A stretch of DNA of 64,000 nt from an uncultured Microthrixaceae bacterium (GTDB lineage Bacteria > Actinomycetota > Acidimicrobiia > Acidimicrobiales > CAVOFX01): assembly GCA_963695115.1 (NCBI GenBank), contig CAVOFX010000002.1, forward strand, positions 4,427 to 68,426, written 5' to 3'. Below, one piece after another: positions 7,067 through 56,165 of this stretch. The position numbers were made by a program, and so were the translations under genes. Every line of letters begins with the position of its first letter. Positions within the stretch are counted from its first letter, which is position 1. The notes under the pieces are model-generated. The model saw only the letters and a list, made by a program, of their open reading frames with translations. It did no database searches and was not told where the DNA came from.

Positions 7067-7639
7067 TCAGGCCGCGGCCCGCCGAGGGGGGCCGTGCCAG
7101 GCGGCAGCCAGCGCTCCGAGCGCCATGAGGCGCGCCAGCCGGCGGACCTCGGCGACCTGCGCCTCGGGCGGCAGCTCCTTCGCGCGGGCGCCGGCACCCA
7201 GGCTGAGGATCGACCCGGCACCCCCGATCGAGAGGATCGAGCCGGCCGAGCCGATCGAGAGGATCGAGCCGGCCGAGCCGATGGACAGCAGCGAGCCCGA
7301 GGAGGCGAAGGAGCCGATCGAGCCGATGGCGAGCACCGACCAGGCCGAGCCCACCGAGGCCGTCGACTTCCAGCTCAGCACCGAGAACAGAGAGCGGCCC
7401 GAGGCCACGGACGCCCGCCTCCCGACCCGGAGCAGCTGGTCGATGGTGAGCTGGACCGCGAGCGTCCGGGTGATGGTCCGGATGTCGCGCGGGCCCGCTG
7501 CTCGGCGGCGGCCAGGCGGGCGGTGCCGCTGCACCGGCCGGCGCCCTCGGGCCCGGTGACGGTCGGCTCGCTCGACCCCCGCGCCCGGTCGGCGTCGCAG
7601 CCGTTCGTCGAGGAGCAGCCGGGCTTCATCGAGATCCAC
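7067..7639 (-). CDS. hypothetical Ser/Gly/Ile/Leu-rich repeat protein (9-aa units LSIGSAGSI)
   Basis: 190-aa ORF with strong third-position GC in the repeat half. It contains an in-frame 27-bp tandem repeat. Function is unknown and the N-terminal limit is uncertain. Confidence 0.5.
   Translation of the reverse strand: MDLDEARLLLDERLRRRPGAGVERADRHRARGRRPVQRHRPPGRRRAAGPRDIRTITRTLAVQLTIDQLLRVGRRASVASGRSLFSVLSWKSTASVGSAWSVLAIGSIGSFASSGSLLSIGSAGSILSIGSAGSILSIGGAGSILSLGAGARAKELPPEAQVAEVRRLARLMALGALAAAWHGPPRRAAA
7205..7290. repeat. 27-bp tandem repeat, 2 identical units (7224-7250, 7251-7277) plus degenerate flanking copies
   Basis: ccgatcgagaggatcgagccggccgag occurs twice back to back. It encodes SIGSAGSIL repeats on the minus strand. 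Confidence 0.8.
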
Positions 7640-11404: not shown

Positions 11405-12170
11405 ATGGCTCGGTTCAAGGTCGGAGTGCAGCTGCTGCCCCAGCACACCTCGGTCCAGGCGCTGCGAGATGCGGCACGAGCGGCCGACGAGATGGGGGTC
11501 GACAGCATCTGGACGTGGGACCACTTCTACCCCCTGTTCGGTCCCGAGGACGGCAACCACTTTGAGGCCTGGACGCTGCTCAGCGCGTTCCGCGGCCGAC
11601 ACGAGCCGGGCGATGCTCGGCATCCTGGTGAGCGGCAACACCTACCGGAACCCCGAGCTGCTGGCCGACATGGCCCGCACCGTCGACCACATCTCGGGTG
11701 GACGGGCGTACCTCGGCATCGGCGCCGGCTGGTTCGAGCGCGACTACGACGAGTACGGCTTCGAGTTCGGCACGGCCGGTGGTCGGCTGCGGGCGCTCGA
11801 GGCGAGCCTCGAGCGGATCCGGGCCCGCGTCCCCGAGCTCTCGCCGCCTCCCGTGGGTCGGCTGCCGGTGATGGTGGGCGGAGCGGGGGAGAAGGTGACC
11901 CTGCGGCTGGTGGCAAGCCACGCGGACGCCTGGAACACCTTCGGACCGCCCGAGAGCTGGGCCGCCAAGAACCGGGTGCTCGACGAGTGGTGCGGCAAGG
12001 TCGGCCGGGACCCCGCGGAGATCGAGCGCACGGTGCTGCTGAACGTCCCCGACGAGCTCGACGACGTGGACGCCTACGTGGAGGCCGGCTGCGACCACGT
12101 CCTCGTGGGCGCGGGGGACCCGTTCGATCTCTCGCACGTCCAGCTGGCCCTCGACCTGGCTCGGGGGTAG
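11405..12170 (+). pseudogene. LLM-class F420-dependent oxidoreductase, apparent +1 frameshift near 11590
   Basis: MARFKVGVQLLPQHTS...MGVDSIWTWDHFYPLFG...EAWTLLSAF is in one frame. ADTSRAMLGILVSGNTYRNPELLADMARTVDHISGGRAYLGIGAGWFERDYDEYGF... continues in the ORF 11469..12170 frame. Confidence 0.8.
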
Positions 12171-12198
12171 CCGCCCAGCCCCGTCGGGGTTGCGTAGA

Positions 12199-12214
12199 GC
12201 GAACAGGTGTTCGA
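12199..12214 (+). promoter_or_regulatory. LexA (SOS) box upstream of imuA'
   Basis: GCGAACAGGTGTTCGA matches the actinobacterial SOS-box consensus TCGAAC-N4-GTTCGA. It lies 12 nt upstream of the imuA' ATG. Its 15-nt core CGAACAGGTGTTCGA is identical to the box at 16798-16813. Confidence 0.8.
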
Positions 12215-12225
12215 TACTGGCCGGG

Positions 12226-13110
12226 ATGGCTCTGGCCGAACGTCTCGCCCACCATCCGAACCCGTGGGCCGCCCCGCCGTCCGAGCTGGACCACCTGGCC
12301 TGGCGGGTCCGGCCGGTGGTCACCGCCGATCAGCAGGTCCTCCCCGTGCTGCCCCCGCTCGAGGACCTCGTACCCGGCGGCCTGCTCCGGGGCCTGGTCG
12401 TCTCCGTCGGCGGGTTGGCCGCCACCTCCCTGGCCTTGGCGGTGGCTGCAGGCCCGTCCCGGTCCGGTTCGTGGGTGGCGTCGGTGGGGATCCCCACGCT
12501 GGGCCTGGCGGCGGCCGCGGAGATCGGGGTCGACCTCTCCCGGCTGGCGGTGGTGCGCCAGCCCCCATCGGCGCAGTGGGCTCCGGTGGTGGCCGCTCTC
12601 ATCGGGGCCTTCGACCTGGTGCTGCTCCGGCCTCCGCGACGGGTGGGCCGCAGCGAGGCACGGCGCCTGGCGGCTCGGGCACGCGAGAGGGGGACGACCC
12701 TGCTGATGGCGGGCGGCAGGGAAGCGGCCTGGCCGGAGAGCCCTGACCTGGGCATGACGGTGACCGGGGTCGAGTGGCAGGGGTTGGGCCGGGGCCACGG
12801 CCACCTCAGCGCCCGCCGGGTCCGTGTCGCGTCCGAGGGCAGGGGTCGGGCCGGGCGTCCCCGCGAGGCCGAGCTGTGGCTTTCCGACGCCGACGGGCGG
12901 GTGGCTCCGGTGAGCCGGTCCGTGGTCGTCCCGTTCGACCTGTCGCAGCGCGCCGAGCCGTCGCATCGCGCCGAGCCGTCGCATCGCGCCGAGCCGTCGC
13001 ATCGCGCCGAGCCGTCGCATCGCGCCGAGCCGTCGCATCGCGCCGAGCCGTCGCATCGCGCCGAGCCGTCGCAGCGCGCCGAGCCGTCGCATCGCACCGA
13101 GTCCACATGA
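12226..13110 (+). CDS. imuA: ImuA' (actinobacterial ImuA-like mutasome accessory protein) with C-terminal (RAEPSH)8 repeat
   Basis: ...QQVLPVLPPLEDLVPGGLLRGLVVSVGG...SGSWVASVGIPTLGLAAAAEIGVDLSRLAVVRQPP..WAPVVAALIGAFDLVLLRPP is the typical ImuA' core. The SOS box lies upstream. The stop overlaps the imuB ATG (ATGA at 13107-13110). I prefer the ATG at 12226 over the track's start at 12190, which lies upstream of the LexA box and would put the box inside the coding sequence. Confidence 0.8.
   Translation: MALAERLAHHPNPWAAPPSELDHLAWRVRPVVTADQQVLPVLPPLEDLVPGGLLRGLVVSVGGLAATSLALAVAAGPSRSGSWVASVGIPTLGLAAAAEIGVDLSRLAVVRQPPSAQWAPVVAALIGAFDLVLLRPPRRVGRSEARRLAARARERGTTLLMAGGREAAWPESPDLGMTVTGVEWQGLGRGHGHLSARRVRVASEGRGRAGRPREAELWLSDADGRVAPVSRSVVVPFDLSQRAEPSHRAEPSHRAEPSHRAEPSHRAEPSHRAEPSHRAEPSQRAEPSHRTEST
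12949..13092 (+). repeat. 18-bp tandem repeat x8 (cgcgccgagccgtcgcat), in frame in imuA'
   Basis: Units fall at 12949, 12967, 12985, 13003, 13021, 13039, 13057 and 13075. Seven are identical and unit 7 ends cag instead of cat. A diverged ninth unit (13093-13110) carries the imuA' stop and the imuB start. Confidence 0.95.
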
Positions 13111-14750
13111 GCAGCGTCGCCGAGGCCCCGACCCGCATGGCGGTCGTGTGGTGCGGGGACTGGCCGGTCGTGGCCCTCGGAGCCCCTCTCGACCGCCCGG
13201 CGGCGGTCGTCCACGCCAACCGGGTGGTGGCCTGCACCCCGGCCGCTCGCACAGAGGGGGTGGCGGTGGGGCTCCGGCGGCGCGAAGCGCAGAGCCGCTG
13301 CCCCGGGATGGCCGTGCACGAGCGCGACCTGCTCGCCGAGGCCCGGGCCTTCGAGCCGGTGGCGGAGGTCGTCGAGCAGTTCACCCCCCGCTTCGAGATG
13401 ACCGTCCCCGGTTCGTGCTCTCTCCACACCAGGGGACCGTCCCGATACTTCGGTGGTGACCAGGCCCTGGCGGGTCGCATGGCCGAGAGGATCGGAGAGG
13501 TGCTGGCGGGCCGCGGCTGGTTCCGGATCGGGGTGGCCGACGGGTTCTTCGCCGCCCGCTCGGCGGCCCGGATGGCCGCTTCGGCCCCCTGCGTCATCCC
13601 GCCCGGGGAGAGCCCGGGGTTCCTGGCCCCGCTCCCGATCGGCACCCTCGAACGCCCGGGGCTCACCGACGTGATCTCCCGGTTGGGCCTGCGCACCCTC
13701 GGCGATCTGGCAGGGCTGCCCCGAGGCGACGTGATCGGGCGTTTCGGGCGCGAGGGGGAGGAGGCCCACCGTCTGGCCTCCGGCCTCGACCCGCGCCCAC
13801 CCGCCGTGGGCCCGCCGCTCGCCTCGCTCGAGGTGGCCACCGAGATCGACCCCCCGACCGAGCGGGTCGACCAGGTCGCCTTCGTCGGGAAGTCGTTGGC
13901 CGACGAGCTGCACGCCGAGCTGGGGAGGAGGGGCCTGGCCTGCATCCGGGTGCTCATCGAGGCCGAGACCGAGCACGGCGAGTGCCACCGTCGGTGGTGG
14001 AGGCACGAAGGGGCGCTCTCCTCGCCGGCGCTCGCCGACCGGGTGCGCTGGCAGCTCGAGGGTTGGTTGAACGGCCCCACCCGCCACCGCCCGACCGCCG
14101 GCGTCATCCGGCTGGCCCTCGTGCCCGACGAGGTCGTAGCGGCCACCGGACGCCAGCTCGGCTTCTGGGGGGGCGAGACCGAGGCGGCCGAGCGGGTCAC
14201 CCGTGCCCTGGCCAGGGTGGAGGGGTTGCTGGAGGCGGCGGCGGTCACCGTGCCGGAGTGGAGGGGAGGGCGGGGTCCGGCCGAGCAGGTGGATCTGGTT
14301 CCCGCCGGAACCGTCGATCTCACCGCCGACCGCACGGTCGAACGGGGAGGATCGCCTCCCATCTCTGCTTCCGCCGCCCGGGCGGTGCCTGCTCGAACCC
14401 CGCCTGCGACCGGGGGTGGGTCGGCTCCCTGGCCTGGGGTCCTGCCGGCCCCCGCTCCCGCGCTCGTGCACCCCGAACCGGTGCCGGTCGCTCTCGTGGA
14501 CGCGCGCGGCGAGCCGGTCGGGGTGAGCGGCCGGCTCGTGCTCAGCGCCCCACCTGCCCGCTTGGCGGTACGCGACGGACCGGTCGTGCCGATCGAGGCG
14601 TGGGCCGGTCCCTGGCCCGCCGACGAGAGGTGGTGGGACCCGGAGCGCCGTAGGCGTCGCGCCCGCTTCCAGGTGATCACAACCGAGGGCGCTGCCCACC
14701 TGCTCACCCTCGAAGGCGGCCGTTGGTGGCTCGAGGCCACCTATGACTGA
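13107..14750 (+). CDS. imuB: ImuB (Y-family polymerase-like mutasome subunit)
   Basis: MSSVAEAPTRMAVVWCGDWPVVA...VVACTPAARTEGVAVGLRRREAQSRCP...FEPVAEVVEQFTPRFE...FLAPLPIGTL...LGLRTLGDLAGLP. It is translationally coupled to imuA'. Confidence 0.9.
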   Translation: MSSVAEAPTRMAVVWCGDWPVVALGAPLDRPAAVVHANRVVACTPAARTEGVAVGLRRREAQSRCPGMAVHERDLLAEARAFEPVAEVVEQFTPRFEMTVPGSCSLHTRGPSRYFGGDQALAGRMAERIGEVLAGRGWFRIGVADGFFAARSAARMAASAPCVIPPGESPGFLAPLPIGTLERPGLTDVISRLGLRTLGDLAGLPRGDVIGRFGREGEEAHRLASGLDPRPPAVGPPLASLEVATEIDPPTERVDQVAFVGKSLADELHAELGRRGLACIRVLIEAETEHGECHRRWWRHEGALSSPALADRVRWQLEGWLNGPTRHRPTAGVIRLALVPDEVVAATGRQLGFWGGETEAAERVTRALARVEGLLEAAAVTVPEWRGGRGPAEQVDLVPAGTVDLTADRTVERGGSPPISASAARAVPARTPPATGGGSAPWPGVLPAPAPALVHPEPVPVALVDARGEPVGVSGRLVLSAPPARLAVRDGPVVPIEAWAGPWPADERWWDPERRRRRARFQVITTEGAAHLLTLEGGRWWLEATYD

Positions 14751-14921
14751 TCGGATGCACCCCGGCCCGAACGGTGTTCGGTCGTCCCACGGCGGTGATG
14801 CGGTCCCGGATGACGGGCGTCACATGCCAGATCTGCCTACGCTGGTATGTCTGGTCCCACGGAAGGCTGATGCGGTCCCGGCTCATCGCAGACGGTGGGC
14901 TGCCGACAGGAGGAGCTGAGG

Positions 14922-16688
14922 ATGGCGGGAAAGGAGTCCAGCATGGCAGGGTCGAGACCCGGAGCGACGCGGTCGCGGAGGATGTGGGCAGTAGGAGCTG
15001 TGGCGGTGCTGGCGCTCCTCACAGCAGGGGCATCCAGCTGCGGTGACGACGAGGGCGGGGGTGGCGGGTCGGAGCAGACCACCGTCACCGAGAAGCCCGT
15101 GGCCGGCGGCAAGGTCGTGATGGGCATCGCGGGGGAGACCCCCACCGGCTTCAACCCGACCAGCAGCCAGTTCAGCCCCTCCAGCAACAACGTCAACAAG
15201 GCCATCTACGACCCGATCGCCGTGCTCGACCCGGACGGCATCGCTCAGCCGTACCTGGTCGAGAACTTCGAGCCCAACGAGGACTTCACCGAGTGGGTCT
15301 TCACCCTGCGGGAGGGCGTCACCTTCCACAACGGCGATCCCCTCGACGCCGAGGTCTTCGCGACCTTCTTGAAGGCGGTGCAGGAGGGTCTGCTCACCTC
15401 GATCGCGCTCCGTCCCATGGACGCGGTGCTGAACCTGGCCGAGGGCCAGGAGGCCGCCAGGCCCATGGTCGAGAGCGGCGACATGAGTCAGGAGGATTGG
15501 GAGCTCATGAGCCGCCAGGTCGCGGTCACCACCTCGATCCCGTGGGCAACCCTGCCGGCGTTCTTCAGCACCCAGCCCGGCTTCGTCGCCCACCCCGACT
15601 ACACGGGCACGGTCGACAGCGAGCCCACGGCGGAGGAGCCGATCGGGACCGGCCCGTTCGTCTTCGACGACTGGGTGCTCGACGACCACCTCACCGCGGT
15701 ACGCAACCCCGACTACTGGCGCACCGACGCCGACGGGAACCAGCTCCCGTACCTCGACGAGGTCGAGTTCAGGCCCCTGCCCGACGACCAGACCCGGCTG
15801 GCCTCCCTCGACACGGGCGACATCGACATGATGCACACGAACTCCGCGGAGCTGCAGATGCAGGCGGGCGCGGACGGATCAGGTGTGTCAGAAGGTCAGT
15901 ACGTGGTCTTCGACGGCGGTGCCGGCGACGAGATGACCGTGATCCTGAACACAGCCGAGGAACCGCTCTCGGATGTCGAGGTCAGGAGAGCGCTCGCCCT
16001 GGCGACGGACAAGCAGCTCATAGTGGACGGTCTGTACGACGGGTTCTTCGAGGTCGCGAACGCGCCTTACGTGCCGGACGACTTCTGGTACACGGACCCC
16101 GAGTGGCCGGAGCCGGACCCTGATGCAGCGAGTCAGATGGTCGAGGAGTGGGAGGCCGAGAACGGCGACCTGGTGATCGACCTCACCATCATCTCCATCC
16201 CCGAGAACCAGCGACTGGCCCAGACGCTGGAGGAGCAGTGGTCCGCTGTGGGGATCGACGTGAACATCAAGGCGATCGACGAGGGCTCGGTCGCAGCGTC
16301 CTTGCTCGAGGGCGACTACGACGGGATCATGGTGGCGTTCTTCCCGTACTCGGACCCGGACGAGCACTACCACTTCTGGGATCCGGAGAACATCGGTGAC
16401 ACCGGGGTCCTCAGCGTGAACTTCTCCCGCTACACCAGCGAGATCACGAAGGAGAACCTCCAGGCAGCTCGCGGGATCGACGACCGCGAGGAGCGCAAGG
16501 CGCTCTACGCCGACGTCTGGAAGGACTGGGCGGAGAACGTCCCTTACCTCTTCCTGTACCACCAGAAGTGGATCGTGATCGCCCGGGACAACGTGCATGG
16601 CATCGAGTCGGTCACGTTCCCCGACGGGAGCCCGGCTTCACCGATGTCGTGGGGCTCGATCTTCCTCACACAGGCCTGGGTGACCTGA
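14922..16688 (+). CDS. ABC transporter substrate-binding lipoprotein, family 5 (peptide/nickel type), orphan
   Basis: An AGGAGG-like RBS precedes the ATG at 14922. The signal/lipobox is [14 protein letters not shown]. Family-5 motifs are present: KVVMGIAGE...[31 protein letters not shown]...[27 protein letters not shown]. There is no permease or ATPase gene adjacent. Confidence 0.85.
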
Positions 16689-16705
16689 TCGAGCAGCAGC
16701 ACTGG

Positions 16706-16744
16706 GAGAGGCCCCCCGCTCCGGCGGGGGGCCTCTCTTCTTTT
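16706..16744 (+). terminator. rho-independent terminator after the SBP gene
   Basis: A 13-bp perfect stem GAGAGGCCCCCCG (16706-16718) pairs with CGGGGGGCCTCTC (16725-16737). The loop is 6 nt and is followed by TTCTTTT. Confidence 0.85.
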
Positions 16745-16797
16745 CCCGGGGAGGGTTCCTCCCGTTCCCGGGTCGGGCACCGGTGCTCCCTGGACCG

Positions 16798-16813
16798 ACG
16801 AACAGGTGTTCGA
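16798..16813 (+). promoter_or_regulatory. LexA (SOS) box upstream of dnaE2
   Basis: ACGAACAGGTGTTCGA lies 15 nt upstream of the dnaE2 ATG. Its core CGAACAGGTGTTCGATAC is identical over 18 nt to the imuA' box region. Confidence 0.8.
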
Positions 16814-16827
16814 TACCCTGCGTCCCC

Positions 16828-19800
16828 ATGGGCTGGCGCAACCCCCCGATCCCCTGGTCCGAGCTGGAGCACCGGCTCTCCGACCGGGGCGTCCTCCCGG
16901 GCGGTCTGCCCGGCGAGGGTGGTGACTCACCGGCCTGGTCCCGTCGCCGTGCCCCCTACCAGCCTCCGGAGGGGATGGAGCATCCCCGATCCGATCAGGG
17001 CCCGGGGTACGCCGAGCTGCACTGCCACTCCAACTTCAGCTTCCTCGACGGCGCCTCCCACCCCGAGGAGCTGGCCGAGGAGGCGGCCCGGCTCGGGCTC
17101 CGGGCGCTGGCCCTCACCGATCACGACGGCCTGTACGGCGTGGTGCGCTTCGCCGAGGCCGCCGCGGCGTCTGGGTCTGCCCACGGTGTTCGGGGCCGAG
17201 CTCACCCTGGGCCGCACGCGGTCCCAGGCCGGGGTCGCCGACCCGGATGGCGATCACCTGCTGGTGCTGGCCCGGGATCCCGAGGGCTACGCCCGGCTGA
17301 GCCGGGCCATCAGCGAGGCTCAGCTCCGGGGAGGCAAGGGGGCACCCCGGTGCTCTCTGGGCGATCTGGCGGAGCTGGCTTCGCGCGACGGCGAAGCCGG
17401 CCACTGGGTGGTGCTCACCGGGTGCCGCAAGGGCACGGTGCCCCGAACCCTGCTCGAAGCCGGGCCGGCCGCGGCGGGTCGCGAGCTGCACCGCCTGATC
17501 GACGCCTTCGGCCGCGGGAGCGTGGTCGTCGAGCTCTGGGATCACGGCGAGCCGCTCGACTCGGCCCGCAACGACGCCCTGGGCGAGCTGGCGGTGAGGG
17601 CCGGGGTCGAGGTGGTGGCGACCAACGACGTCCACTACGCCACCCCTGGCCGCCGGCGCCTGGCCACCGCGCTGGCGGCGGTGAGGGCCCGTCGCTCCCT
17701 CGACGAGATGGACGGGTGGCTGCCCGCGGCGGGTGGGGCTCACCTGAGGTCGGGGGCCGAGCAGGCGGCACGCTTCGCCCGCTACCCCGGCGTGGTCGAG
17801 CGGGCAGCCGAGCTGGCCCTGGAGTGCGCGTTCGACCTCCAGCTGGTGGCTCCCGAGCTGCCGCCGTTCCCCTGCCCGCCGGGTCACCACGAGATGTCGT
17901 GGCTGCGGGAGCTGACCGAACGCGGAGCGCGGACACGGTACGGCCCGCGGGGAGCCGAGAAGGTGCCGGGCGCGTACGCGCAGATCGACCACGAGCTCCG
18001 GATCATCGAGCAGCTCGGGTTCCCCGGCTACTTCCTCATCGTCTGGGACATCGTCGAGTTCTGTCGCCACAACGACATCTACTGCCAGGGACGGGGGTCG
18101 GCCGCCAACTCGGCGGTCTGCTACGCCCTCGGCATCACGAACGCCGACGCGGTGGGTCTCGGGCTGCTCTTCGAGCGCTTCCTCTCACCCGAGCGCGACG
18201 GCCCACCCGACATCGACCTCGACATCGAGAGCGGTCGTCGTGAGGAGGTCATCCAGCACGTGTACGAGAAGCACGGCCGCCACAACGCTGCGCAGGTGTG
18301 CAACGTCGTCACCTACCGCGCCCGCTCGGCGGTGCGTGACATGGCCAAGGCCCTCGGGTACTCGACCGGCCAGCAGGACGCCTTCGCGAAGCAGGTCGAC
18401 CGCTGGGGGCCGCTGAGCGAGGTGGGTGAGGTCCCTCCCGACGTGTTGGAGCTGGCCACCCAGCTCGAGCACGCGCCGCGCCACCTCGGCATCCACTCGG
18501 GCGGCATGGTGCTCTGCGACCGGCCGGTGATAGAGGTCTGCCCCGTCGAGTGGGCCTCGATGGAGGACCGCAGCGTCCTGCAGTGGGACAAGGACGACTG
18601 CGCCGCCGTCGGCCTGGTGAAGTTCGACCTGCTCGGGTTGGGGATGCTCAGCGCTCTGCACGGCGCCGTGGACCTCATCCGCGCCCACCACGGCGTCGAG
18701 GTCGACCTTGCCACCCTCCCCCAGGAGGACAGCGTGTACGACATGCTCTGCGCCGCCGACTCCATCGGGGTGTTCCAGGTGGAGAGCAGGGCCCAGATGG
18801 CCACGCTCCCTCGCCTCAGGCCCCGGTGCTTCTACGACCTGGTCGTGGAGGTGGCGCTCATCCGCCCCGGTCCCATCCAGGGCGGGTCGGTCCACCCCTA
18901 CATACGCCGTCGCAACGGCCAGGAACCGGTCACCTACCTCCACCCCCTGCTCGAGCCGTCGCTCGCCAAGACGCTCGGCGTGCCGCTCTTCCAGGAGCAG
19001 CTCATGCAGATGGCGATCGACGTCGCCGGCTTCACCGCCGGCGAGGCCGACCAGCTCCGCCAGGCGATGGGGGCGAAGCGCAGCCGCGACCGCATGGAGA
19101 GCCTGAGAGCGCGGTTCTACGACGGCATGGCCGAGAGGGGGATCATCGGCGAGGTGGCCGACGTCATCTGGGAGAAGCTGGCGGCGTTCGCCAACTTCGG
19201 GTTCCCCGAGAGCCACTCGGTCTCGTTCGCCTACCTCGTGTACTCCTCGGCCTGGATCAAGCTCCACCATCCGGCGGCGTTCTGCGCGGCCCTGCTCAAC
19301 GCCCAGCCGATGGGGTTCTACTCGCCCCACACCCTCACCCAGGACGCGTGGCGCCACGGTGTAGAGGTGCGCACCCCCGACCTGAACCGATCCGGGGCGG
19401 CCGCGACCCTGGAGTGGGACGGTGTGGACAGGGATGGCGTGAACGGTGACGGGGCAGGCTCCCCTCAGCCAGCGGTGAGGTTGGGGCTCTCCTCGGTGCG
19501 CACGGTGGGCACCGACCTGGCAGAGCGCATCGAGGCCGAGCGGGCGAGGAGCGGTCCGTACGTCTCCATGGAGGACCTGAAGCGGCGGGTCGAGGTGAAG
19601 CTCGACACCCTCGAGGCTCTGGCCACCGCCGGGGCGTTCGGGTGCTTCGACGCCGCCCCGGGCGAGTCGCTGAGCAGGAGGGAGGCGCTCTGGGGGGCGG
19701 GGGCGGTGGCCCAGGCCGGAGCCGATCGGCTGGCCGGCATCGTCACCGGCACGGTCGCACCTGCACTGCCGCAGATGAGACCCGAGGAGGTGGCCCGCGC

Positions 19801-20221
19801 CGACCTCTGGGCCACCGGGGTGTCACCCGACGGCCACCCGACCCGTTTCGTCCGCCGTCTCCTCGACGAGCGGGGCGTGGTGACCTCGGAGGGACTGAAG
19901 ACCCTCGACCACGGGGACAAGGTGCTGGTGGCCGGGGTGGTCACCCATCGGCAGCGACCGGCGACCGCCGGAGGCACGACCTTCCTCAACCTCGAGGACG
20001 AGACCGGCCTGGTGAACGTGGTGGTGTCGCGGGGCTGCTGGACCCGTTACGCCCAACTGGCCCGATCGGCGCCGGCGCTCTTGGTGCGGGGGCGTCTCGA
20101 GCGGGCCGGGGGAGTGGTGAACGTGGTGGCCGAGAAGCTCGAGCTGCTGCCGGTCGGTGGGACACGCCGGCGCGACGCTTCGCCGGGCGAGCCGGTGCTG
20201 CGCTCACGCGACTTCCGTTGA
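16828..20221 (+). pseudogene. dnaE2: error-prone DNA polymerase III alpha subunit DnaE2, apparent +1 frameshift near 17165-17170
   Basis: The N-terminus [18 protein letters not shown]...[55 protein letters not shown] is in the ORF 16783 frame. The sequence then continues as [13 protein letters not shown]...[19 protein letters not shown]...[22 protein letters not shown]... to SRDFR* in the ORF 16568..20221 frame. Confidence 0.9.
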
Positions 20222-52595: not shown

Positions 52596-52643
52596 GGGGG
52601 GAATGGTGGCAGGCCCGGGCAGTGGAAGCGAAGCCCCGACATC

Positions 52644-52894
52644 GCATCGACCCACCCCCACCCAGCGAACCGTCGGTTCAGACGCCAGGATTTCCGGCGC
52701 CTCAGCCGGAAGTTCGCATCGACCCACCCCCTGCCAGCGAACCGTCGGTTCAGACGCCAGGATTTCCGGCGCCTCAGCCGGAAGTTCGCATCGACCCACC
52801 CCCTGCCAGCGAACCGTCGGTTCAGACGCCAGGATTTCCGGCGCCTCAGGCGGAAGTTCGCAACGACGCACCCCCACCCAGCGAACCGTCGGTT
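52644..52894. repeat. 72-bp tandem repeat array, left arm (3 full units + 35-bp partial)
   Basis: Units are 52644-52715, 52716-52787 and 52788-52859, with a partial at 52860-52894. The consensus is gcatcgacccaccccctgccagcgaaccgtcggttcagacgccaggatttccggcgcctcagccggaagttc. Confidence 0.95.
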
Positions 52895-52934: not shown

Positions 52935-53867
52935 TCACGGCCGGCGTCGCGTGGCGAGCCCGGCGAGCTCTCGGCTCAGGGTCCTGGTGGCCACGTCCAG
53001 GAGCAGCTCCAGCCCGCTGTCGACGACGACGAAGGCGTCCGAGCTGATGCCGTTCTCGAGGATGATCCGATGCGGGGAGAGGCGGACCGTCGCTTCGGTG
53101 TCCTCTGCGCGCACGCCGATCGCGAGTGGACCCGGCAACCTGAGCACCACCGCCCGCACAGCGGCGTTGGCCAGGTACTGCGGCACCGCGTCGGCCAGCA
53201 TGTGGACCACGAGGTTGGCCTCTTCCCGCGGCGGTCGGTCTATCGGCGGGAGGGCAGGTGCAAGGCGGGTCGCGAGACGCATCGCCCCCGCCGCCAGGAA
53301 CAGCGGCGTGGCCAGAGGTGCGGTGGCGGAGACGAGGAAGGTCTCCCAGACCGCGGCCGGGAAGTCGAAGGGCCGGCGACCCCGCAGGCGGGCCCACAGC
53401 CCGTCAGCCGTGTTGCCTGCCAGCGAGGAGAGCTCTGCCACAGCGACCGTTGCCCGGACCGATCGGACGGCCCGGGGCGGCAGCACCTCCTGCAGAGCGG
53501 TGGCGTCGACGGGCCCACCGGCCAGTGCGGAGTCGCGGGCGAAGTCCAGCAGCACGGGGAGCGCCTCGTCGATCTCCCCTTCGCCGAGGAAGTCCCTCCA
53601 GGCACCGTGGATCCAGGCGGTGTAACGGCAGCCGTTCACCTCTGTCACGGCCATGACGATCTGCTCCCGCGAGCGTGGCGAGAGACTCCGGCTGCCGGGC
53701 AGGACGCCGTCGAGGAGTCCACCGGCGCTCGAGCCGAGCTCTGCCAGCCACGGCACGAGGCGCTGGGGAGTCGCCGTAGGCCGGGCGAACAGGTCCACGG
53801 CCCAAGCGTACGCCCGGACTCGTTCGGTGCCGGGGAGCAGGTGATCCGGCGTGTCGGCCCGGTCCAC
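52935..53867 (-). CDS. AhpD/carboxymuconolactone decarboxylase-like domain protein with SCP2-like C-terminal region
   Basis: 310 aa. The segment ...REQIVMAVTEVNGCRYTAWIHGAW... resembles the CMD/AhpD-like helix motif, with the second Cys replaced. The C-terminal segment ...PLAIGVRAEDTEATVRLSPHRIILENGISSDAFVVVDSGLELLLDV resembles an SCP2 sterol-binding fold. Both domain calls come from pattern memory only. Confidence 0.65.
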   Translation of the reverse strand: MDRADTPDHLLPGTERVRAYAWAVDLFARPTATPQRLVPWLAELGSSAGGLLDGVLPGSRSLSPRSREQIVMAVTEVNGCRYTAWIHGAWRDFLGEGEIDEALPVLLDFARDSALAGGPVDATALQEVLPPRAVRSVRATVAVAELSSLAGNTADGLWARLRGRRPFDFPAAVWETFLVSATAPLATPLFLAAGAMRLATRLAPALPPIDRPPREEANLVVHMLADAVPQYLANAAVRAVVLRLPGPLAIGVRAEDTEATVRLSPHRIILENGISSDAFVVVDSGLELLLDVATRTLSRELAGLATRRRP

Positions 53868-53885: not shown

Positions 53886-54105
53886 CCACCGACGGTTGCG
53901 AACTTCCGCCTGAGGCGCCGGAAATCCTGCCGTCTGAACCGACGGTTCGCTGGCAGGGGGTGGGTCGATGCGAACTTCCGCCTGAGGCGCCGGAGATCCT
54001 GGCGCCTGAACCGACGGTTCGCTGGGTGGGGGTGGGTCGATGCGAACTTCCGCCTGAGGCGCTGGAAATCCTGGCGCCTGAACCGACGGTTCGCTGGGAG
54101 GGGGT
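53886..54105. repeat. 72-bp tandem repeat array, right arm (inverted orientation; 14-bp partial + 2 full units + truncated third)
   Basis: Units are 53900-53971, 53972-54043 and 54044-~54105. Unit 53900-53971 differs from the reverse complement of 52716-52787 at 2 of 72 positions (hand alignment). Confidence 0.95.
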
Positions 54106-54129: not shown

Positions 54130-55329
54130 TCAGCGGAAGGCGTTGAGGCCGGTGATCGTCTGGCCCAGGACCAGCTGGTGCACCTCGTTGGTTCCCTCGT
54201 AGGTGTACACGGACTCGAGGTTGTTCATGTGGCGGATGATCGGGTACTCGAGCGTGATCCCGTTCGCTCCGAGCACGGAGCGCGCCTCACGCGCAACCCA
54301 CAGCGCCTCGCGGACGTTGTCGAGCTTCCCGAAGCTGACCTGCGCGGGGCTGAGCCGGCCCTCGTCCTTCAGCCGTCCGAGGTGCAGCGCGAGGAGGGTC
54401 CCCTTCTCGACGCGGAGCATCATCTCGACCAGCTTGCGCTGCGTGAGCTGGAAGCTCGCTATCGGCTGTCCGAACTGCTCGCGGTCGAGCGAGTAGCGGA
54501 GGGCGGTCTCGTAGCAGGTGCGGGCCGCACCCATCGCCCCCCAGAGGATCCCGAAGCGGGCCTCGTTCAGGCACGACAGCGGCCCGCGCATCGACGAGAC
54601 CTCGGGTAGGCGCGCCGACTCGGGCACCCGCACGTCGTCCATGACCAGCTCTGACGTCACCGAGGCCCGCAGCGAGAGCTTGTGCGGGATGTCGGTGGCC
54701 GCGAAGCCGGGGGAGTCGGTCGGGACGATGAAGCCGGCGTAGCTCCCCGCCTCGTCGGGCGTGCGGGCCCAGACGACCGCCAGGTCCGCGACGCTGCCGT
54801 TGGTGATCCACATCTTGGTGCCGTTCAACACCCAGTCGCCGCCGTCCCGCCTGGCGTGGGTGCGCATGCCGGCGGGATCGCTCCCCGAGTCGGGCTCGGT
54901 GAGTCCGAAGCAGCCGATCGCCTCTCCCGAGGCCATCTGCGGGAGCCACTCCTGCTTCTGGTCCTCCGACCCGAAGCGCCAGATCGGGAACATCGCCAGC
55001 GAGCCCTGGACGGAGACGAACGAGCGGGCCCCGCTGTCGGCGGCTTCCAGCTCGAGACAGGCCAGCCCGTACTGCACCGCGCTGGAGCCCGCGCAGCCGT
55101 AGCCGTCGAGGTGCATGCCGAGCAGCCCGAGCTCACCCATCTCCGTGGCGAGCTCGCGGGGGAACACCCCGGCCTCGAACCACCCGGCGACCCCGGGGAG
55201 GATCCGATCCGTCACGTAGCGGTGGACGGTGTCACGGAGCATCAGCTCGTCGTCCGAGAGCAGCGAGCCGATCGCCAGGAGGTCCAGGGGATCGGGATCG
55301 GCGTGCGTGTGCTCTCGTGGCTCGCTCAT
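54130..55329 (-). CDS. acyl-CoA dehydrogenase (glutaryl-CoA dehydrogenase-like)
   Basis: MSEPREHTHADPDPLDLLAIGSLLSDDE...GCFGLTEPDSGSDPAGMRTHARRDGGDWVLNGTKMWITNG...YTYEGTNEVHQLVLGQTITG. I chose the ATG at 55329. Confidence 0.9.
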   Translation of the reverse strand: MSEPREHTHADPDPLDLLAIGSLLSDDELMLRDTVHRYVTDRILPGVAGWFEAGVFPRELATEMGELGLLGMHLDGYGCAGSSAVQYGLACLELEAADSGARSFVSVQGSLAMFPIWRFGSEDQKQEWLPQMASGEAIGCFGLTEPDSGSDPAGMRTHARRDGGDWVLNGTKMWITNGSVADLAVVWARTPDEAGSYAGFIVPTDSPGFAATDIPHKLSLRASVTSELVMDDVRVPESARLPEVSSMRGPLSCLNEARFGILWGAMGAARTCYETALRYSLDREQFGQPIASFQLTQRKLVEMMLRVEKGTLLALHLGRLKDEGRLSPAQVSFGKLDNVREALWVAREARSVLGANGITLEYPIIRHMNNLESVYTYEGTNEVHQLVLGQTITGLNAFR

Positions 55330-55382
55330 CGGGCTCAGCGTAGGGGGCTGCTGCCGGAGCGTGCCGATACGCTGGCGGCTCG

Positions 55383-56165
55383 ATGGGCAGGGACCGCGGC
55401 GATCGCTGGGGTGAGGGTGCGAGCGAGCTCGACGCCGCGAGCCCATACCTCGCGCTTGCCAGAGAGATCCAGCGCGAGGTGGAAGCCGTCGTCGAGGATC
55501 CGGAGGCGGATGGCGAGGCCCTCGTGGAGGCGATCAAGGCGGTACCGGCGCGAGAGCGGTCTCGCATGATCAAGACCGCCTTCGAGAGGCTCCCCGCCGA
55601 GCGACAGTGGGAGATCCTCGAGGCAGCGTTCGGTGACGACGAGATCCGCTCTCATCTGGAACGGGAACGGGCCGCTCACCTCGATGCTCTACGACGATCC
55701 TCCGACCTGGACGCGCTCGTGACCCGTGCCCGCGCCACCAGCCACCTCGATCTGCGCGAGCTACCCAGCACAGTCCAGCTCGCGGTCGGCTTGTTCAGGC
55801 CCTCGGACGTTCGAGCGGCGCTCCGGAAGGGCCATCTCTCAGACAGCTGTGCGCGGATTCTCGTCGTCCGTCCCGTGGATCGGGAGGGCGGGGTCCGGGT
55901 CATCGATGACTCCTTCAACCCCAGGGGTGGCTTGTTCGTGACTGCTGAGTACGACGAGGCCACATGGAGCAGGGAGCAGATCCCGAGCCACACGGTGGTG
56001 CGGCTCGGCTCCATCGCGGGGCACGGTGGCGATCGCCAGCTCGAGCCCTTGCTCTACGCAGGGGCCCGGGTCGATGTCGAGATCAGCGGTGAGATCATCG
56101 AGGGACAGCTCCACTTGGGCTTCGCTATGTTGGGTGACCGGGATGTCTTCAGCGGGCTCGGGTGA
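55383..56165 (+). CDS. conserved hypothetical protein (260 aa)
   Basis: The ORF is intact with a coding-like composition (…ERLPAERQWEILEAAFGDDEIRSHLERERAAHLDAL…VIDDSFNPRGGLFVTAEYDEATW…). Confidence 0.6.
   Translation: MGRDRGDRWGEGASELDAASPYLALAREIQREVEAVVEDPEADGEALVEAIKAVPARERSRMIKTAFERLPAERQWEILEAAFGDDEIRSHLERERAAHLDALRRSSDLDALVTRARATSHLDLRELPSTVQLAVGLFRPSDVRAALRKGHLSDSCARILVVRPVDREGGVRVIDDSFNPRGGLFVTAEYDEATWSREQIPSHTVVRLGSIAGHGGDRQLEPLLYAGARVDVEISGEIIEGQLHLGFAMLGDRDVFSGLG

Follow-up and report, generated by a model that had tools for sequence, protein, structure and literature searches.

In-frame coding variable-number tandem repeats (VNTRs) are known from several bacteria, among them the 6-bp repeat of Mycobacterium leprae rpoT and the 12-bp vrrA repeat of Bacillus anthracis, and to our knowledge no functional consequence is attached to coding VNTRs of this type. 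In the classical contingency loci of Haemophilus, Neisseria and Campylobacter, units of 1-7 bp act as frameshift or promoter-spacing switches, and most of these loci reside in surface or restriction-modification genes. The MIRU-type VNTRs (mycobacterial interspersed repetitive units) found in mycobacterial operons lie between cistrons, with 40-100 bp per unit, and occur at many scattered loci. Here we describe an array of 18-bp tandem repeats at the 3' end of imuA', directly ahead of imuB, in a stretch of 64,000 nucleotides (the window) from contig CAVOFX010000002.1 of an uncultured Microthrixaceae bacterium. The array is probably a young in-frame minisatellite, generated by slippage, and lengthens a labile tail of ImuA' that is predicted to be disordered, most probably with little or no effect on function.

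Two published systems bear on what such a tail might do. In Mycobacterium smegmatis, the core segment G97-M144 of ImuA' binds the RecA-NT motif of ImuB in an AlphaFold-predicted interface, which is supported by truncations and point mutants of ImuB, and by none of ImuA' (PMC11791113). The same paper relates that truncating M. tuberculosis ImuA' by its last 40 residues "seemed to abolish" binding to ImuB in yeast two-hybrid assays, and cautions that this deletion may have cost ImuA' its structural integrity. In Myxococcus xanthus, the C-terminal 53 residues of ImuA are disordered and their removal leads to a DNA-independent ATPase, while residues 223-290 mediate self-association (PMC11002988). 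Our literature search returned no paper tying imuA to a tandem repeat.

An 18-bp array in frame with imuA'

The array is composed of eight head-to-tail units of 18 bp, starting at positions 12949, 12967, 12985, 13003, 13021, 13039, 13057 and 13075 (Table 1). Seven of these units are identical (CGCGCCGAGCCGTCGCAT), and the only change is found in the seventh (13057-13074), where the terminal CAT is replaced by CAG and His by Gln; differences between units thus amount to 1 base in 144 (0.7%). Parsing the sequence anew returned the array exactly as it stood in a preliminary description of this DNA, including the diverged ninth unit that holds the imuA' stop and the overlapping ATGA (13107-13110). 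Tandem Repeats Finder (TRF) reported a period of 18 over 12942-13101, with 8.9 copies, 97% matches and a score of 299. This is the sole period-18 array in the window, and a higher TRF score was reached only by two 72-bp arrays at about 52.6-54.1 kb. A search for the unit that allowed up to 3 mismatches retrieved 8 matches in the window, all of them inside the array, against a chance expectation of 0.64, and none of 100 shuffled sequences reached 8 matches.

The GC (guanine plus cytosine) content of the array, 77%, equals that of the flanking genes. Together with the uniqueness of the unit in the window, this points to a local origin of the array rather than to an insertion, and a mobile or dispersed element was rejected as a candidate on the same grounds. 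The His codon of seven units is CAT, yet CAT makes up only 7% of the His codons in four neighbouring genes. This fits the amplification of one founder unit, the codons of which were not optimised afterwards.

The frame of the array runs on from the body of ImuA', giving (RAEPSH)6-RAEPSQ-RAEPSH-RTEST followed by the stop codon. With a unit length that is a multiple of three, a frame shared with the host open reading frame (ORF) and a high identity between units, the array has the structure of an in-frame coding minisatellite, and changes in copy number would stay in frame, in agreement with the preliminary description. Two alternative readings of the same DNA were rejected. Both the antisense MRRLGA ORF (11527-13092, minus strand), already suspected to be a shadow ORF, and the RRAVAS reading in the frame of imuB are shadow frames of the kind typical of DNA with 77% GC, the plus-strand frame being set by homology to ImuA'. 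The imuB frame is open upstream through the entire repeat (12774-14750), and open alternative frames are common at this GC content. An indel in the tail that shifted the imuA' frame into that of imuB would fuse the body of ImuA' to ImuB, a use for which there is no evidence.

The host ORF was identified as ImuA' by the NCBIfam model NF058630, which it matches over residues 49-206 with 137.5 bits (cutoff 65). PF27531 is carried by 120 of 120 listed homologs, these being the best 120 of 1042 in the database, and the few relatives that are named there belong to Acidimicrobiia/Acidimicrobiales. The best Foldseek matches of the core are to RecA (E ~1e-12, probability 1.00). A profile search against the sequences of the Protein Data Bank (PDB) gave a weak RecA match (E 2e-6); no solved ImuA' structure was found among these sequences, only distant RecA matches. 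The gene identities that had been proposed from the reading frames therefore hold, that of imuB through its IMS domain and QLGFW clamp motif.

Table 1. Positions of the array, its host gene and the surrounding mutasome features (numbering of the window; SD, Shine-Dalgarno; AF2, AlphaFold2).
Feature	Positions	Strand	Basis
LexA/SOS-box-like palindrome CGAACAGGTGTTCG, 12 nucleotides 5' of the imuA' ATG	12200-12213	+	exact match to CGAACNNNNGTTCG
imuA' coding sequence, 294 residues; RecA-like core at about residues 40-237, repeat tail 242-294	12226-13110	+	NF058630, PF27531, AF2, Foldseek
Degenerate half unit ctgtcgcag (LSQ), directly 5' of the array	12940-12948	+	7 of 9 bases match ccgtcgcat, the second half of the unit
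Eight 18-bp units CGCGCCGAGCCGTCGCAT, (RAEPSH)8 with unit 7 as RAEPSQ	12949-13092	+	sequence reading, TRF, unit search
Diverged ninth unit CGCACCGAGTCCACATGA, RTEST plus imuA' stop TGA (13108-13110)	13093-13110	+	sequence reading; matches the relative's terminal CGCGCCGAGTCGTGA
imuB, 547 residues from 13107 or 537 residues from 13137	13107-14750	+	Pfam IMS, 1.1e-10
Candidate imuB start 1, ATG overlapping the imuA' stop (ATGA 13107-13110)	13107-13109	+	sequence reading
SD-like GAGG (13122-13125) and candidate imuB start 2, ATG 13137-13139, N-terminus MAVVWCGDWP	13122-13139	+	comparison with the relative
Solute-binding-protein gene, family 5, nickel/oligopeptide type, between imuB and dnaE2	14895-16688		Pfam SBP_bac_5
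Terminator-like hairpin between imuB and dnaE2, after the solute-binding-protein gene	16718-16732		terminator scan
Second, identical SOS box (predicted), 5' of dnaE2	16799-16812	+	sequence identity with the imuA' box
dnaE2, error-prone DNA polymerase	16829-20221	+	NCBIfam NF004225, 1368.6 bits (cutoff 939)

The tail in the closest relative and across the family

In an alignment of 121 ImuA' sequences, conservation is strong as far as L217-W218-L219 and G224 and ends with the weaker motif V234-x-P236-(L/F)237 (F237 in the window protein), beyond which the columns are sparse and unconserved. The repeat begins at R242, five residues past this final V-x-P-F motif. An AF2 model built on the same alignment has a mean predicted local distance difference test score (pLDDT) of 82. 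Most of residues 41-230 score above 90, with two loops at 76-81, and residues 241-294 score 47-58, with almost no secondary structure apart from one three-residue helix at 239-241. By this model the repeat is an appendage outside the RecA-like fold, in a segment predicted to be disordered.

The closest relative that we found (P0001), encoded on a 1.8-kb Logan contig, has 76% protein identity to the window protein and shares its N-terminal MALAER. Its C-terminus ends in VVVPFESPQDSGSSRRAELPLRAES directly before the stop, and the DNA at the repeat site reads tcgtcgcgg-CGCGCCGAG-ttgccgttg-CGCGCCGAG-tcg-TGA, equivalent to about two diverged proto-units of period 18; the terminal partial unit of the relative corresponds to the ninth unit of the window. 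The DNA of the two is 82.5% identical in imuA' and 85.9% identical in the 5' part of imuB; the overall difference in the flanking genes is 14-17%, and their third codon positions differ by 28%. Since the units are only 0.7% apart as compared to 14-17% in the flanks, the expansion of the array, or its last homogenisation, appears to be far younger than the split of the two lineages. A RAEPSH tail or a comparable repeat was found in none of the 120 nearest homologs (the best 120 of 1042), and none of 150 family representatives has the RAEPSH array. These comparisons, which include the homolog alignment that had been suggested as a check of lineage specificity, indicate that the array is a lineage-specific and recent expansion, as had been proposed from the near-identity of its units.

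To place this tail within the family, we ran a profile search that retrieved 3546 family members from 1.84 billion representative sequences, aligned 267 sequences to the profile, and defined the tail as the residues past the conserved Trp. Tail length could be measured in 228 homologs, in which it ranges from 6 to 303 residues (quartiles 28, 36.5 and 48, the second being the median), a 50-fold variation with no common sequence. The window tail, with 76 residues, is equalled or exceeded in 8% of these homologs; without its eight units it would measure 28 residues, at the 26th percentile. Low complexity and an abundance of Pro, Ala, Gly, Ser and Arg mark many of the long tails. Tandem peptide repeats unrelated to RAEPSH are present in the tails of five other homologs (P0194, P0222, P0207, P0218 and P0176), comprising a 17-residue unit in three copies, GDLIG in five, and GTGSG, ERTAT and GAVPA in three each. 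In a sixth homolog (P0241), TLPAP is repeated four times at residues 213-236, a position that is not anchored on the conserved Trp. The unrelated repeats in five other tails suggest that the tail is a permissive site in which repeats arise repeatedly, rather than the seat of a specific motif.

Many tails that are otherwise unrelated end in (L/V)-x-G, AG or EG (P0002, P0003, P0005, P0094, P0106, P0194, P0207, P0218 and others). This shared end is possibly the footprint of an overlapping ribosome-binding site and start of imuB and not a protein motif; the RTEST end of the window protein is without it.

The protein database, the one-genome-per-species collection, the JGI metagenome contigs and exact look-ups all yielded no sequence of the same species. 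The exact-sequence look-ups gave no match for ImuA' (294 or 306 residues), ImuB (547 or 537 residues) or DnaE2. A scan of genome contigs retrieved only unrelated proteins with RAEPSH-like repeats and without the ImuA' body, and a scan of metagenomes with the repeat-free ImuA' body found nothing, while a 24-nucleotide junction pattern gave a single chance match there, within an unrelated gene. At 162 bp the array exceeds the length of typical short reads, and its assembled copy number is therefore provisional.

The unrelated proteins that carry RAEPSH-like hexapeptide repeats in their tails come from other bacteria, mostly actinobacteria (L002, L003, L004, L006 and L009), and their DNA unit is often nearly identical to that of the window, as in Salinispora mooreana, where CGTGCCGAGCCGTCGCAT has 17 of 18 bases in common with it. 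Judged by the appearance of their sequences, the carriers include a chain-length-determinant/tyrosine-kinase-like protein of Kitasatospora and a malate:quinone-oxidoreductase-like protein of Rhodococcus; two metagenome-assembled genomes, labelled a "delta proteobacterium" and a Planctomycetota, have such repeats as well. Several of these repeats use the CAT His codon that is rare in the genes of the window. The RAEPSH-like repeats elsewhere may reflect convergent slippage on GC-rich codons.

Origin and possible roles of the array

We propose that a two-copy proto-repeat (RAExxxRAE), already present at the extreme 3' end of imuA', would have grown into the array through replication slippage or unequal exchange. 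The C-terminal tail, which is predicted to be disordered, unconserved and variable in length, and which would lie outside the ImuB-binding RecA-like core, would thereby have gained about 48 residues of (RAEPSH)n, a polyampholyte that contains proline. Because the tail lies outside the core that binds ImuB, its expansion would be tolerated and is probably neutral or nearly so. A change by whole units keeps both the frame and the junction with the next gene, so that translation of imuB close behind imuA' would be preserved at any copy number.

The ATG within the ninth unit had been taken as the start of imuB. The overlap with the imuA' stop is indeed present, and the relative (L001) has an analogous TGATG overlap of the imuA' stop and an imuB ATG, but the 8-10 codons that follow the overlapping ATG are not conserved (MSSVAEAPTR in the window, MDTERSSR in the relative). 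The ATG at 13137 is better conserved: read from there, the first 19 residues of ImuB are identical between the window and the relative, with 86% identity over the 134 residues compared, and an SD-like motif precedes this second ATG in both (GAGG at 11 nucleotides in the window, GAGAGG at 9 nucleotides in L001). Judging by this conservation, imuB may actually start at ATG 13137, 26 nucleotides past the imuA' stop, rather than at 13107. Since the junction lies downstream of the array, gain or loss of units cannot change the stop/start geometry with either start.

A more consequential role was raised in the preliminary description, on the condition that the C-terminal part of ImuA' is involved in binding ImuB, as implicated in mycobacteria. 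The array would then be a contingency-type VNTR, in which gain or loss of units would tune ImuA'-ImuB assembly, self-association or ATPase gating and so create heritable differences in SOS mutagenesis among subclones. Its eight near-perfect units form a structure that is slippage-prone according to general VNTR work, unit changes are in frame, and precedents can be seen in M. xanthus ImuA, whose disordered C-terminus regulates ATPase and self-interaction (PMC11002988), and in the loss of two-hybrid binding by the 40-residue deletion in M. tuberculosis, as recounted in PMC11791113. However, M. xanthus ImuA belongs to another family than ImuA', and the deletion may have unfolded ImuA' according to the authors, who place the modelled ImuB interface, backed by mutations on the ImuB side, in the core (PMC11791113). 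We infer that in the shorter mycobacterial ImuA' a 40-residue deletion cuts conserved core strands and not a tail like that of the window. The repeat itself lies past the last conserved motif, in a stretch of low pLDDT where tails of the family differ widely in length and have no sequence in common, and its peptide is absent from all homologs examined; the proposed place at the ImuB interface does not agree with this. ImuA' is moreover a cytoplasmic protein, and a unit of 18 bp that is always in frame, in an array within the ORF and far from the promoter and SOS box, makes no on/off switch. We therefore regard mutasome tuning as speculation that has no positive support and is unlikely to be correct. 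Still more improbable is the analogy-based notion that RAEPSH copy number acts as a rheostat setting ImuA' activity, oligomerisation or ImuB stoichiometry. If it were true, a clonal population would contain heritable, reversible subclones differing in their capacity for SOS-induced mutagenesis, with a hypermutable tract controlling a mutagenesis machine.

Another explanation accepts the array as real and attributes its copy number or perfection to assembly or sequencing, a 162-bp repeat having been collapsed, expanded or homogenised. Its length beyond that of typical short reads would allow this, there is no independent copy of the genome from the searches above for comparison, and the F420 oxidoreductase gene just upstream (11405-12170) is frameshifted near 11590, maybe by sequencing error, although the frameshift could equally be that of a genuine pseudogene. 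Against an artefact speak the exact maintenance of the ImuA' frame, the ending in the ancestral terminal unit with an intact junction, and the presence of one internal variant unit; moreover, the relative already has a proto-repeat, so that an array at this site is expected. We regard it as unlikely that the copy number or perfection of the array stems from such errors. A role at the level of nucleic acid, as an unstructured spacer for imuB initiation, a rare-codon (CAT) pause, a series of binding sites or an internal imuB promoter, seems very improbable. The repeat does fold less stably than composition-matched shuffles, both as RNA and as DNA (z ~ +4.2), it contains seven rare CAT codons, and its end is 15-45 nucleotides ahead of the candidate imuB starts. 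However, weak folding is expected of any direct repeat without an internal palindrome, and a structural role of the RNA or DNA was rejected for this reason. The unit is non-palindromic and occurs nowhere else in the window, the promoter scan found no promoter-like site in 12000-17000, and no Rfam family matched in the window. The closest relative also manages with about two diverged units, and the tails of homologs are unrelated.

Several points weigh against a slippage-generated and nearly neutral array. No other tail repeat among the 267 ImuA' homologs examined is as long and as regular, which could reflect selection and not chance. The distantly related ImuA of M. xanthus has a functional disordered tail that gates ATPase and self-association (PMC11002988); this tail is the sole precedent for such a function, and by analogy a regulatory reading retains some, though low, probability. 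The M. tuberculosis two-hybrid result, as far as it is reported in PMC11791113, is not formally overturned for the tail itself. Finally, no same-species sequence was found in the searches described above, and the present-day instability and the neutrality of the array are what we infer.

A recent and nearly neutral minisatellite would illustrate how low-complexity tails grow, with a two-copy proto-repeat in one lineage and a nine-copy array in its sister lineage, in a family that tolerates this tail at almost any length. The array is also a practical candidate marker for strain typing in a poorly sampled lineage of Acidimicrobiia. As a short read does not span it, it calls for caution in annotation and assembly. 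An effect of tail length on mutasome function, if shown, would link a slippage-prone tract to the control of induced mutagenesis; the known interface argues against it.

Gene context and known repeat systems

The imuA' gene is located just 5' of imuB behind a putative SOS box, with dnaE2 in the same window. The 18-mer CGAACAGGTGTTCGATAC is identical upstream of imuA' and, at 16799, of dnaE2, and the same SOS-box-like palindrome is also found upstream of imuA' in the relative (L001). The solute-binding-protein gene and the hairpin between imuB and dnaE2 suggest that the mutasome genes form two units, each with its own predicted SOS box. In ImuB, the clamp motif QLGFW (residues 350-354) is followed by a RecA-NT-like segment, a layout matching that of M. 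smegmatis ImuB, which has 352-QLPLW-356 plus RecA-NT (PMC11791113); similarity to Pol IV models is weak and far below every cutoff. The gene just 5' of imuA', coding for an F420-dependent oxidoreductase of the LLM class, is split between two frames near 11585-11595, with its N-terminus (MARFKVGV) in one frame and the remainder in ORF 11469-12170. It is either a pseudogene or the product of a sequencing error, and bears on the trust to be placed in the assembled repeat count.

The window contains other repeats. Two arrays of 72-bp units, at 52642-52894 and 53897-54105 (3.5 and 2.9 copies, 94-96% matches), are inverted relative to each other and separated by about 1 kb; their 211-nucleotide arms are 95% complementary. 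The longest ORF in the segment between them (52935-53867, minus strand) encodes 310 residues and has no Pfam match, and an acyl-CoA dehydrogenase gene (54130-55446) follows the arrays. An invertible or mobile cassette is one possible reading of the pair, and a regulatory array another. At 7205-7325, a degenerate 27-bp tandem repeat with a 9-bp sub-period (4.5 copies, 78% matches) is covered by long ORFs on both strands, read as IERIEPAEP repeats on one and SIGSAGSIL repeats on the other.

When compared to described systems, the 18-bp array resembles the repeats of other ImuA' homologs in form, as tandem peptides, and in position, in the C-terminal tail of this one protein family. Those repeats have units of 17 and 5 residues in 3-6 copies, imperfect in P0194 and P0222, whereas the window array has 8-9 copies. 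The tail of M. xanthus ImuA (PMC11002988) is likewise about 50 residues long, predicted to be disordered, and placed at the C-terminus of a RecA-like accessory protein of ImuB and DnaE2. It belongs, however, to a separate family and has no tandem repeat, and its regulatory role was measured, whereas the window tail is known from sequence.

As in the classical contingency loci, the array is a perfect or nearly perfect tandem repeat inside a gene and prone to slippage; in contrast to them, its unit is in frame, it resides in a gene for a cytoplasmic protein, and it cannot act as a switch. With MIRU-type repeats it has in common a position at a close or overlapping gene junction of an actinobacterial operon, with the frame and the stop/start overlap kept. 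It differs from them by its unit of 18 bp, by its position inside the coding sequence of the upstream gene, and by its uniqueness in the 64-kb window, where a search that allowed up to 3 mismatches found no further copy. The array is most similar in kind to the repeats of rpoT and vrrA, which also have short units that are multiples of three, nearly identical and placed head to tail in an ORF, and in which changes of copy number affect nothing but the length of a low-complexity stretch. Those loci were defined by polymorphism among strains, whereas the window array is known from a single sequence, and its 18-bp unit, its RAEPSH peptide and its host gene imuA' are its own. The array is therefore another coding VNTR in a low-complexity tail, a known kind of feature.

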